Positions 48,632-59,075 of a stretch of DNA of 64,000 bases are shown piece after piece (the first letter of the stretch is position 1; each line of letters starts with the position of its first letter). The stretch is taken from the NCBI GenBank assembly GCA_048885525.1, contig JBHLLP010000015.1, positions 1-64,000 on the forward strand, written 5' to 3'. A model generated the notes under the pieces. That model searched no databases, was not told where the DNA came from, and saw nothing but the letters and a program-made list of their open reading frames with translations. Source of the stretch: Candidatus Hermodarchaeota archaeon (GTDB lineage: Archaea; Asgardarchaeota; Lokiarchaeia; Sigyniarchaeales; SOKP01). Position numbers and translations under genes: made by a program.

Positions 48632-50743
48632 ATGTCAGAAAACTTAGTTGTTATAGACATAACTGATCGTGAACGAATTGTTCTCGATGGATCACAAAAT
48701 ATCAAAGAAATTTCAGGTAATGGAACACTGGTAATAAAAAATCCAACCCAAAGAAGTAGATTATGGAATTTGATATGCAACGTTAAAGAAAATGTAAATA
48801 CTTCATTGGAATCGAAGGAACTTACAGTAGGAACTTTAAATCCTGCTCAAGATTATAGAAAAGAATATCAGATTAGAGAATTAAAAAATTCTTCTTTAAA
48901 GGTTGAGGAAATATATGATACAGATAAAACAAATGCTACTAAAGTAAATAATGCATTTCTATATAAAATAGATAACAAATGTAGTTTAAAACTCATATTG
49001 ACAAATCCTCTAAACTTACCTATCTTAGATATTAAAGTGAAAAGGGATTTGCCACCATATATTCAAGAAATTGAAATGAGGAGTCCAAGTAATGGAGATG
49101 CTAATTTAAAAGAAGAGGATGGAAAACGAATCCTTGCTTGGGAGTTAATATCTTTAGAAGCAAATAATAGTGCTGAACTTGAGATTTTCTTTACAGTAAA
49201 TATAAAAGAATTATCTAGCCAAGAGCTTGGAGTCTTAACTGTTAATTATTTAATTAATAATTATAAATTGACAATGATGAATCCGGAGGTTAGAGGTTTA
49301 ACAGATTCGATGAGTGGAATTGAAAGAGATGAAGGGTCTCAACCTGGGATGTGGGATTGTAATGTTGAATTTATTAATGAATCTGGATTCCAAGTGAAGC
49401 TTGAAGATGTAAAAGTATCGCAAACAATACCAACTGGAGTAGAAATAGTAGTTTCTCAAACACCTGATAGAGTCTTAAGTCCCGATGAATCATGGGATTA
49501 TGATTTCCAAGTTGAAGCTAAGGATGTACCAGAATTGAGTTCAGAAATTGGATTTACACCATTATTTGTGGTGATTACAAGAGTTATCGGTGAAATTGTA
49601 AAAGAATCTACTATTTATGAAGTTTTAAGTGCAACTATTGATAAAGCTATAAATCCACTCGAAGTAGACGCGTATGCTAATACTGATATGGAAATCACAA
49701 ATACTATAGTAAATATTGGATCATCTCCAATTGATAAGTTTCTCTTATCAGATGAGCTTCCTTCTGATTTTCTTCCTCCTTTAGTTAAAGAAATAAAAAT
49801 TTTCTTGGCTGATATTGATATAAGTTCAAGAGAAGAATTCGTTCAAAAGATACTAATCGATCCTAGTGATCAAGATTTTTCTAAAAAACATCAAATTTAT
49901 GTCGAATTATTCAATCTTTCTAATGAATTTCTACCCGGGAAAAAGATCGAGATTACATATCCTCTTTTAGCAAGAAATCCGCGACCTCCTACTGAAACAA
50001 AATATATGACTCCTGTTAAAATAGAAATTAATAGTCCAGTAGAGGGTCAAAGCTTTATTAGAGAAACAGATGAAGAACCAGAATTAAAAGTTAGATATGT
50101 TAAACGTAAATTAAAAACCCTTAAAAGCATTAAACCAGGGTTAACTGAGGGAGAATTTAGCATTGGAGTAAGAGTTCAAAATAAAGGAGATGTTGAGTTA
50201 GAAAACGTACTTGTCAAAGATATTATTCCCTCTAGTTTTAGCTTAACTGAATTTACACCTCCTCTTGGTGCAACTCATGAAGTAGTGCAAGTAGGAGCTG
50301 TATCAGAATTACATATAAAAATTGGGGAGATAAAAGGCGGCGTATCGGTTAGTATAAACTATAATTGTTCTGGTTCTGGCGATTATCCTAGATCAGAACC
50401 TGTTGTTATTGTTGAAGGAAGAGGTGCTGGAGAATCATCAAGTTCCTCAGAAGCGCCTTCAGCTGAAAAAGAAACCCCAAAAGCTCATGTAACAAGCTCT
50501 CAAGCTGGCAAAATACATGAACTATTCATTGAAATATATAAAGCTATTGATCGCGCCCCTACTGGTGAAATGTTAGGAGATATATTAGAAAGGAGAAAGG
50601 ATGAATTCCCACCGGGACCAGTTCTTCATCAAATTTTAACATATGCTAAAGAAATGAAAGCTCTTGGAAATAAAATAGTCGTTGGTTCATTGCGAGATGA
50701 AGTAATGAATAGATTAAAAGAATTTAAGAGTAAGTATGCTTAA
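48632..50743 (+). CDS. Cytosolic multi-beta-sandwich protein with mu-homology-like N-terminus and helical C-terminal domain
   Basis: 703-aa ORF, no signal peptide or TM; repeated N.....DV.V.D..P Ig-like units; Ser-rich linker before a helical tail. Confidence 0.6.
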   Translation: MSENLVVIDITDRERIVLDGSQNIKEISGNGTLVIKNPTQRSRLWNLICNVKENVNTSLESKELTVGTLNPAQDYRKEYQIRELKNSSLKVEEIYDTDKTNATKVNNAFLYKIDNKCSLKLILTNPLNLPILDIKVKRDLPPYIQEIEMRSPSNGDANLKEEDGKRILAWELISLEANNSAELEIFFTVNIKELSSQELGVLTVNYLINNYKLTMMNPEVRGLTDSMSGIERDEGSQPGMWDCNVEFINESGFQVKLEDVKVSQTIPTGVEIVVSQTPDRVLSPDESWDYDFQVEAKDVPELSSEIGFTPLFVVITRVIGEIVKESTIYEVLSATIDKAINPLEVDAYANTDMEITNTIVNIGSSPIDKFLLSDELPSDFLPPLVKEIKIFLADIDISSREEFVQKILIDPSDQDFSKKHQIYVELFNLSNEFLPGKKIEITYPLLARNPRPPTETKYMTPVKIEINSPVEGQSFIRETDEEPELKVRYVKRKLKTLKSIKPGLTEGEFSIGVRVQNKGDVELENVLVKDIIPSSFSLTEFTPPLGATHEVVQVGAVSELHIKIGEIKGGVSVSINYNCSGSGDYPRSEPVVIVEGRGAGESSSSSEAPSAEKETPKAHVTSSQAGKIHELFIEIYKAIDRAPTGEMLGDILERRKDEFPPGPVLHQILTYAKEMKALGNKIVVGSLRDEVMNRLKEFKSKYA

Positions 50744-57827: not shown

Positions 57828-59075
57828 TTATTGTTTTTTCCTCAACCAAGCTCTAAATGCTTTTGTAGTTTTACCATGCCAAATAGCCTTTTTAGGATAA
57901 GCTTTCTCAAACTCCTCTATATCTTCTTCTGTATATTCTAATGGAGTTTGTTCATCCTCCTCATCTTCTTCCTCCTCATCAAAATCTATGGAAATTTCAT
58001 ATTTTTCTCCAGTAATATCCTCTAAAGCGCTCATTATATCTTCAAGATCTTCTTTCTTTCTTACAACCACAGGTACTTTTTCCAATACTTTATCTTCTTT
58101 AATTTCTTCTTTTTCAGATTCTTTTATTGTTTTTTCATATGCTTTTCTTTTTTCTAATCTTTCAACTCTTATTTTTTTTATTTCTTTAATAATCTCGTCA
58201 TAATTATCCTTGAAATATTTTAGACTTACGTTAATAAGATCTGAAACATTATCCCATTTATCTTCTTTAACAATACCTTCTGCCCAATAATATAAATCTA
58301 AATTAAGTTCTATCGTAACTGCTTTTCCTTCGGATTCCAAACTACCGATTAAAAAACTTAAAATATTGGCTATTAATATATCATTATCTAAAGCGGAAAA
58401 ACCATATTCATGGGCAAGAGAAGAAAAAATACTAAGATTCCCAAACCCTACAACTTTACCCTTAAAATATTCTACAGCAACCATCAATGGAACTTTAGGG
58501 CTATCTTCTTCTATCCAATACTCGCCATCATAACGCTTACGCCAACTATTTAATCCAGATTTTAAAATCCAATCTATTTTTATATTTTCCTCAACATTAA
58601 GGAAATCTAAAATTTTGATTGAACACGAACTTGAAAAAACGATTTTTTTTATTTGGTTTGTTATAACATGAGGTTTAAATTTTGTTATAATAGGTCTTTT
58701 CTGAAGATTGACATAATTTACTGAATCATATATCTCATCAGAAATAAACTCAAATCCAAATTTACGTGTTAAATCATTTAGATTAGTGTTATTTGTAGAA
58801 TTTCCTCCACTTGAGCTATTTATTAAGAGGCTTCCTCCATTTTTCACATATTCTTCAAGAATGTTAATTTCAGTCTCGTCCAGATTAATATTCCTAGGAG
58901 TAGATAGAATTATCACATTATATTTTTCTAAATTGGCTAAAGAATAAAACCCAGTTTCAATTTTCCCCAATTTATAGCCAGATGTGAATAGAAATTGAAC
59001 AAATTCACCAAAACTAGATGATTCTACGTTTAAAATATTATTATGAGAATAATCTAAGCCAATAACTATATCCAT
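57828..59075 (-). CDS. GIFT (GldG/IFT52)-like domain + RHH-like segment + acidic tail
   Basis: D.SH, L..Y.VIIL..P, E...L.EYV..GG.LL, NLN.L...FG, GKVV..G, DN.....N.L; then VTIEL...NVSDLIN. Confidence 0.7.
   Translation of the reverse strand: MDIVIGLDYSHNNILNVESSSFGEFVQFLFTSGYKLGKIETGFYSLANLEKYNVIILSTPRNINLDETEINILEEYVKNGGSLLINSSSGGNSTNNTNLNDLTRKFGFEFISDEIYDSVNYVNLQKRPIITKFKPHVITNQIKKIVFSSSCSIKILDFLNVEENIKIDWILKSGLNSWRKRYDGEYWIEEDSPKVPLMVAVEYFKGKVVGFGNLSIFSSLAHEYGFSALDNDILIANILSFLIGSLESEGKAVTIELNLDLYYWAEGIVKEDKWDNVSDLINVSLKYFKDNYDEIIKEIKKIRVERLEKRKAYEKTIKESEKEEIKEDKVLEKVPVVVRKKEDLEDIMSALEDITGEKYEISIDFDEEEEDEEDEQTPLEYTEEDIEEFEKAYPKKAIWHGKTTKAFRAWLRKKQ

Follow-up and report, generated by a model that had tools for sequence, protein, structure and literature searches.

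A predicted mu-homology fold in a cytosolic multidomain protein family of Asgard archaea

The mu-homology domain (MHD) is the sorting-signal reader of clathrin/COPI-type adaptors, and where it came from is among the unsettled points in the rise of the eukaryotic endomembrane system. Does an archaeal protein carry this fold, and if so, does it serve as an adaptor? The question is raised by a gene at positions 48632..50743 (+ strand) of a 64,000-nucleotide stretch of DNA (hereafter the window; G+C ~29%), which comprises positions 1 to 64,000 of contig JBHLLP010000015.1 from the assembly of a Candidatus Hermodarchaeota archaeon (GCA_048885525.1), placed by GTDB in the Sigyniarchaeales within the Lokiarchaeia. 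A first-pass annotation, made from the DNA alone, had proposed that this gene encodes an MHD joined to immunoglobulin (Ig)-like appendages, an architecture unlike that of eukaryotic MHD proteins, and had taken the product for a candidate coat component or cargo adaptor. The predicted fold and the unusual architecture are upheld here; the coat or cargo-adaptor role is left unsupported.

The N-terminal fold

The gene is a complete coding sequence with an ATG start that encodes a protein of 703 amino acids (P0001), and the open reading frame and the peptides quoted in the first-pass annotation are present in the translation exactly as given. Its nearest database relatives are proteins of ~703 aa from metagenome-assembled genomes (MAGs) of Promethearchaeota/Lokiarchaeia, which are 80–86% identical within the genus; across classes, identity within the family is ~30%.

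Residues 1–326 are confidently predicted to form a mu-homology fold, in which the sandwich of subdomain B is inserted into the sandwich of subdomain A. An AlphaFold2 (AF2) model of residues 1–240, computed from a 79-sequence alignment with no templates, contains 14 strands and reached a predicted local distance difference test score (pLDDT) of 93.1 and a predicted template modelling score of 0.83; the five models ranged from pLDDT 89 to 93, and the full-length model reached 92.2. When this N-terminal model was compared to the PDB with Foldseek, all of the ~49 listed top matches were MHDs, namely those of AP-2 mu2, AP-1 mu1, AP-3 mu3A, AP-4 mu4 and delta-COP, with E-values down to 2e-8, a probability of 1.00 and template modelling scores of 0.54–0.69 over 219–270 columns, and the similarity is therefore far above chance. 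A VIA-align search against representative structures, which is independent of Foldseek, likewise returned MHDs in all of its top ten places: AP-2 mu2 (score 15.0; 207 residues, root mean square deviation 3.1, model residues 1–228 on mu2 168–412), AP-3 mu3A (14.7), an AP-2 mu2/FCHO2 chimera (7ohz; 14.6), AP-4 mu4 (14.4), AP-2 mu2 within the AP-2 core (2xa7; 14.1), AP-1 mu1 (13.8), bovine delta-COP (13.3), SGIP1 (13.2), Syp1 (12.0) and yeast delta-COP (11.6). The region thus models as the interleaved two-subdomain MHD that had been claimed for the N-terminus, and the ordinary tandem DUF11/CARDB Ig folds that would have spoken against it did not appear in the model. We also considered whether the fold could be an artefact of AF2 and rejected this, given the absence of templates, the pLDDT values of the five models and the independent support from sequence profiles described below.

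The first part of subdomain A (residues 1–100; 48632..48931) is predicted by AF2 to comprise six strands, and the superposition puts residue 1 at mu2 168, an offset consistent with the parallel that the annotation had drawn between this N-terminus and the start of the mu domains. Profile matches and superposition place subdomain B, a DUF11-like sandwich that carries the PF00928 (Adap_comp_sub) signal, at residues ~105–200 (48944..49231), and the strands of residues 201–234 (49232..49333) lead back to subdomain A and align up to mu2 ~412. Two closing strands, residues 301–326 (49532..49609), superpose on mu2 ~413–435. Since the full-length model aligns ~22 more residues, corresponding to these last two MHD strands, we infer, from alignment ranges rather than from coordinates, that an extra beta module of ~70 residues (235–300; 49334..49531) is inserted ahead of them. 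All of these elements, like those described further below for this gene, are on the + strand. In the family alignment the set of positions conserved throughout comprises E/D12, G31, N37, R43, W45, Y79 and E93 in subdomain A, N125, G155 and W170 in subdomain B (where K/R138 and P141 also belong to the PF00928 signal), E234, P238, W241, N249, W288 and P300 in the region of the insert (where C243 and S251 are also conserved), and G363, Y443 and N517 beyond the MHD.

Sequence profiles were examined in 74 diverse members of the family, counting PF00928 matches at E ≤ 0.01; the cut-offs are 31.6 bits for PF00928 (gathering score), 24.6 bits for PF01345 and 24 bits for TIGR01451. Only one Pfam model matches the family more often than PF00928, which is found in 35 of the 74 members (best E 1.9e-10). 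Orthologues that are 64–75% identical to the window protein match it at 26–29 bits (E 6e-6 to 7e-7), below the cut-off, and align residues ~94–215 with profile positions ~104–226 of 259; the distant member P0155, scanned singly, scored 34.4 bits, above the cut-off. All matches lie within subdomain B plus the first of the return strands (profile ~104–237 of 259). A search of the organism's own genome with the PF00928 profile gave no match, a result that is uninformative as the control genomes cannot contain PF00928.

When a profile of the whole family was compared to all PDB sequences, the 18 best matches were chains of AP-3 mu1, AP-2 mu and AP-1 mu1 (E 1e-3 to 1.3e-2), and further mu chains followed lower in the list; a phmmer search of the same sequences with P0001 alone gave nothing meaningful (best E 2.1). 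The family profile aligns with AP-3 mu1 279–396 and AP-2 mu 300–401, again subdomain B with the first of the return strands, where HMMER pairs the family block 'skGeaeld…relvWkieeL' with 'tQ-GSYTFD…KVLAWDVGKI' of AP-3 mu1. The motif of this subdomain, a glycine followed on the next strand by a hydrophobic residue, any residue and a tryptophan, is present, with G155 conserved in 97% and W170 in 100% of the family. The annotation had pointed to a parallel between the stretch ILDIKVKRDLP...RILAWELISLE and a mu segment, and HMMER reproduced it ('...IeltKelp...GeaeldeegrelvWkieeL...'); with mu chains as the best PDB sequence matches of the family profile, the parallel is statistically real.

The same region leads to a second family of domains. 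The only Pfam match of P0001 itself is DUF11 (PF01345; residues 508–579, 34.3 bits, E 3.1e-8), above its threshold, and the only NCBIfam match is TIGR01451 (31.2 bits). DUF11 matches were found in 72 of the 74 members, often over the region that also matches PF00928, and subdomain B scores as DUF11 in distant homologues; at the level of sequence it is recognisably a DUF11-like sandwich. One could accordingly imagine the protein as a structural or surface protein of the ordinary DUF11-repeat kind, evolutionarily and functionally unrelated to adaptors, which looks like an MHD only through the generic geometry of beta-sandwiches. Look-alike clusters in the Atlas, from Thorarchaeota and Thermoplasmatota, are indeed named 'DUF11 domain-containing protein', and residues 331–490 find pilin-like and cohesin-like structures. 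We nevertheless regard this explanation as very unlikely, in view of the frequency of PF00928 matches, the mu chains at the head of the PDB sequence list and the lack of an export signal.

DUF11 proteins are typically repetitive, exported proteins of the cell surface. The archaeal family, in contrast, is predicted to be cytosolic and has a fixed architecture, with a DUF11-like unit nested in another sandwich as an MHD. The maximum of the Kyte-Doolittle profile over 19 residues is <1.6 for the 703-aa protein, so that no window reaches the transmembrane level; this bears out the cytosolic location, lacking a signal peptide or transmembrane segment, that had been proposed for it. Neither feature is found in 73 of the 74 family members, and one has a candidate transmembrane segment. 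A secreted or surface DUF11 adhesin was considered and rejected on the same grounds.

Compared to the MHDs of AP-1 to AP-4 (AP-2 mu2 9fiw, 1bxx and 2xa7; mu4 4mdr; mu3A 4ikn), the archaeal domain, at an identity of 8–14%, shares the 'G…hxW' motif of subdomain B; the alignment offsets also place Asp and Lys where mu2 has D176 and K203. It differs in what surrounds it: AP mu subunits have a longin domain and a linker before the MHD, whereas the MHD of the archaeal protein starts at residue 1–6, includes the ~70-residue insert before its closing strands and is followed by three extra C-terminal modules. Likewise, the MHD stands beside a longin domain in delta-COP (4o8q, 5fjw) and beside an F-BAR domain in muniscins (SGIP1 5awr, Syp1 3g9h), unlike in the archaeal family; the profile PF10291 matched the sequence of one family member only (E 0.0048). 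No eukaryotic protein known to us has its MHD at the N-terminus and lacks both longin and F-BAR domains.

From fold to possible function

Matches to the family profile occur in 377 of 400 Asgard-phylum genomes, which cover 80 of 85 genera; most of these genomes have one strong full-length copy. We think it probable that the protein is a soluble, multidomain cytosolic scaffold belonging to an ancient and strongly conserved archaeal family, a reading that draws on the predicted fold, on conservation and on analogy with known MHD proteins. By analogy with every characterised MHD, the domain would act as a platform for protein-protein interactions. At the edges of its sandwiches and of the Ig-like modules, short linear motifs in partners or cargo may dock, beta-augmentation being the probable mode, and through the hinge and helical tail the platform may be tethered to some other machine, cytosolic or membrane-associated.

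Several observations weigh against this reading. P0001 itself gave no PF00928 match in Pfam even at E ≤ 1, and subdomain B is at least as near to DUF11 (E down to 2.7e-19 in distant homologues) as to PF00928; what is shared with adaptors is a fold, and a shared function is not thereby established. Nor is there a conserved partner beside the MHD gene beyond the genus, synteny being kept within the genus only. Furthermore, the family is not Asgard-specific. One of its branches (P0165) maps to Thalassarchaeaceae/Marine Group II MAGs, and of the 151 Thermoplasmatota genomes sampled, 42 contain a full-length match at E ≤ 1e-127, so that a trafficking role is not implied by the distribution; to our knowledge, Thermoplasmatota lack most of the trafficking-type proteins of Asgard archaea. 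The conservation of a putative binding site points the same way. The tyrosine pocket for YxxPhi signals in mu2 is formed by D176, K203, W421 and R423. The start offsets of four superpositions, rather than a residue-level structural alignment, place D9 at mu2 D176, mu1 D174, mu3A D182 and mu4 D190, and K36 at mu2 K203. Among the 11 close orthologues D9 is present in 10 and K36 in all, and the 63 distant members show variation at both positions. In the closing strand, residue 312 is aromatic, and the family alignment shows no evident conserved Trp/Arg pair there. The residues that would correspond to a YxxPhi pocket, which the annotation had suggested looking for, are therefore kept in the close Lokiarchaeial orthologues only and are not conserved across the family, and as judged from these residues a canonical YxxPhi site is unproven and at best a feature of the Lokiarchaeial clade.

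These findings bear on a more specific possibility, namely that the protein is an archaeal medium subunit of the AP/COPI/TSET type, which would select membrane-protein cargo together with separate longin, HEAT and propeller proteins and be recruited by Arf-type GTPases. The complete MHD fold predicted here and the placement of D9 and K36 would suit such a subunit, as would the report that all five AP Pfam domains occur in Asgard archaea, unfused (Eme et al. 2023, PMC10307638). The organism's own genome contains at least 50 matches to Arf-type GTPases as well as HEAT-repeat proteins, some members of the family carry HEAT repeats at their N-terminus, and a paralogue is paired with a propeller gene (see below). 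Yet none of the GTPase or HEAT-repeat genes is linked to the MHD gene, the HEAT-repeat proteins are generic (a control search with Adaptin_N also matches Bacillus subtilis and methanogens), and no PF01217 (longin) match was found in the 703-aa protein, the best one in its genome being at E 0.013 on another contig. Across 14 compared loci no trafficking partner is conserved, and no longin, Arf, HEAT or coat gene is linked, so the tie to an Asgard membrane-trafficking system that the annotation had suggested was not borne out. Since it has no longin domain and no linked heterotetramer partners, the 703-aa protein is not an AP mu subunit, and the variable pocket residues and the presence of the family in Thermoplasmatota also argue against an AP-like role in the wider sense, which we consider unlikely.

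The paralogue is the only one in the organism's own genome. It lies on another contig (C58; L005 8064–10253, +) and encodes 729 aa; its product has a Lys/acid-rich N-terminus, is interrupted ahead of subdomain B by a long KEEE insert and lacks the helical tail. About 150 nt 3' of it, a gene for a cytosolic beta-propeller protein of 556 aa (L005 10402–12072, +) matches BBS7, BBS2_Mid, ITFG2 and PTHB1 (PF23743, E 1.4e-19). Three other genomes (G179, G257, G260), from two genera of the same family, have conserved this pair, with propellers that are 56–69% identical. This pairing is a hint of coat-like partners for the family, not evidence on the 703-aa gene itself. No publication connecting Asgard archaea with BBSome-type propellers came up in a full-text literature search.

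The Ig-like modules and the helical tail

The scaffold reading gives a part to the regions beyond the MHD. In the full-length AF2 model, beta modules extend to residue 595, followed by disorder at residues 598–617 and by four helices within 622–702, which agrees with the further beta-sandwiches, Ser-rich linker and helical C-domain that had been read from the sequence. Residues 331–490 (49622..50101) are predicted to form a large beta-sandwich resembling pilin, cohesin and alpha-2-macroglobulin receptor-binding domains, and residues 493–595 (50108..50416) a DUF11-type Ig-like sandwich. The Ser-rich hinge (598–617; 50423..50482) has a pLDDT below 50, and the helices (622–640, 645–654, 663–677 and 685–702; 50495..50737), which are present in only part of the family, probably form a bundle.

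The Ig-like modules were also compared with the adaptin ear. Positions 527–599 of the family profile, which belong to the last Ig module, match the gamma1-adaptin ear (1gyv) weakly at E 0.02; the ear profile PF02883 is matched by one of the 74 members (7e-6) and AP3B1_C by four. PF02883 found nothing in the organism's own genome, where its control search matched nothing anywhere either. Pilin-like and chitinase Ig-like domains are better structural matches to these C-terminal modules than the adaptin ear.

For the four-helix tail we obtained no assignment from Pfam, PDB sequences or the Atlas. The PDB sequence search returned designed helical bundles, and a Pfam match to TRCF (E 0.011) was judged to be due to chance. 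A flexible hinge followed by a four-helix segment of ~80 residues nonetheless brings to mind a connection to the ESCRT machinery of endosomal sorting: binding of cargo or accessory proteins would fall to the MHD and Ig modules, and the tail, as a Vps28-C-like domain, would dock on Asgard ESCRT-II, making the protein similar to an analogue of ESCRT-0. Makarova et al. 2024 (mBio, PMC10936438) describe many multidomain proteins of Lokiarchaeia and Helarchaeia that join Vps28-C with Ig/appendage domains and propose such 'Vps28-C + adaptin-appendage' proteins as ESCRT-0 analogues. As they are described there, those proteins are likewise cytosolic and combine Ig-like modules with a small terminal helical bundle; the passages searched describe no MHD (PMC10936438).

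At the level of motifs, the first and last tail helices resemble the Vps28-like proteins of the same genome ('..LF.EL...L.KFPG' and 'KEFK.KL'). Two such proteins are encoded there, a full Vps28-like protein (C70:1511–1786, –; 242-aa frame) and a multidomain protein of ~807 aa with Vps28-C near its C-terminus (C8:57052–57600, –), whose family members are ~790–800 aa long. An hhalign comparison of the tail alignment with an alignment of Asgard Vps28-C gave E 0.005 at a probability of only 6.9%, and against single sequences the probabilities were 4.6% and 1.9%. Searches with PF03997 (VPS28) recover Vps28-like genes from the organism's own genome and from 25 of the 31 in the class, and never the tail, whose membership in Vps28-C is thus unsupported by sequence tests. 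Moreover, the MHD gene lies outside any ESCRT locus, many lineages have a form of ~595–600 aa that lacks the helical tail, as is the case for most orthologues outside the clade, and others bear a zinc ribbon instead. An ESCRT-linked cargo adaptor therefore appears to us an improbable identity for this protein.

Prior records, origin and neighbourhood

The family has been recorded before. Eme et al. 2023 (Nature 618:992, PMC10307638) included it among the Asgard 'Adap_comp_sub (PF00928)' candidate eukaryotic signature proteins (Supplementary Table S3), where a Lokiarchaeales orthologue with …IVIDITD…KEIKGKGTLLIKN…SRLWNL… is given along with Helarchaeales, Hermodarchaeia and Jordarchaeia members and with the paralogue type that has the acidic insert; their Supplementary text 4.3.1 describes Adap_comp_sub as unfused to longin and of 'sparse distribution'. 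The listed members share the invariants of the family (the G31, N37, R43, W45, W288, P300 pattern) when compared by eye, without a computed alignment, and we take the entry to be the same family, present there as a Pfam match only, with no structure, domain map or context. What is new relative to that catalogue is the fold, by prediction, the map of the insert and the tail, the near-universality in 377 of 400 genomes, the presence in Thermoplasmatota and the kinship of subdomain B with DUF11. Our literature searches found no paper on the architecture, structure, insert, domain map, near-universality or Thermoplasmatota presence of the family.

The practical value of this particular gene is limited by the earlier catalogue entry. 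The family is, however, a concrete and highly conserved archaeal protein with a complete MHD fold, as predicted, and its main value is that it opens the origin of the adaptor MHD to experiment; as it occurs in cultured Lokiarchaeia-type lineages, its partners, localisation and motif specificity are directly testable. The DUF11-like subdomain B, the presence in Marine Group II and the consistent lack of a longin domain constrain scenarios of origin and caution against reading the family as a marker of trafficking. In the most far-reaching of these scenarios, which we put forward as a speculation with a small chance of being right, the MHD would have been assembled in archaea by nesting DUF11-type sandwiches before Asgard archaea and Thermoplasmatota diverged or exchanged the gene, the cargo module of AP, COPI, TSET and muniscins would descend directly from this near-universal, single-copy family of Asgard archaea, and the Lokiarchaeial form would be a motif-binding adaptor tethered to ESCRT or to a BBS-like propeller coat.

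The locus in the window is monocistronic. The Cys-rich gene upstream is divergent, the small acidic gene downstream is convergent, and the MHD gene is flanked on both sides by AT-rich intergenic DNA, with runs of T after the stop codon. About 7 kb downstream, the window gene at 57828–58970 (–) has a homologue at 25% identity (L025 11077–12396) which, in the distant Asgard genome G117, is ~2 kb away from the orthologue of the MHD gene, a shared proximity that may be coincidence. In three other Asgard families, a gene for a metallo-beta-lactamase (MBL)-fold hydrolase (~230 aa, Lactamase_B_3, E down to 5e-23) is directly upstream of the MHD gene and co-oriented with it (L025 9379–10068, L027 8988–9686, L028, L029, L036 6268–6975); no such gene is present in the window. 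The Marine Group II orthologues (L030, L031, L032) are open frames of ~820–1120 aa with a Pro-rich N-terminus, co-oriented with housekeeping genes for an EMC3/TMCO1-like (DUF106) membrane insertase, a nucleotide kinase and Cbf5, and a gene for a GPN-loop GTPase is divergent from them. In the comparison of 14 loci, these Marine Group II genes and the MBL-fold hydrolase gene were the only neighbours that recurred.

The ends attached to the core of four modules are interchangeable, as seen in the members P0124, P0127, P0130, P0231, P0207, P0210, P0246, P0250 and P0138. The zinc ribbon (CPNC…CKDCGWEWK) is C-terminal and takes the place of the helical tail in some members. Many distant members, among them P0156, P0159, P0167, P0172, P0184, P0196 and P0205, have a conserved N-terminal module of ~85 aa ('W.F.FG.VEL..DK.IV.S..Y..LEK.Y…') with an apparent strand-strand-helix-strand-helix order, followed by an acidic disordered linker and then the MHD; a canonical longin domain would be longer, yet the module occupies the place that this domain has in mu subunits. 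Single fusions were also observed: a Borrarchaeum protein of 1322 aa includes a NACHT domain, and in one member a family-2 glycosyltransferase is fused to modules 4–5 and the tail.

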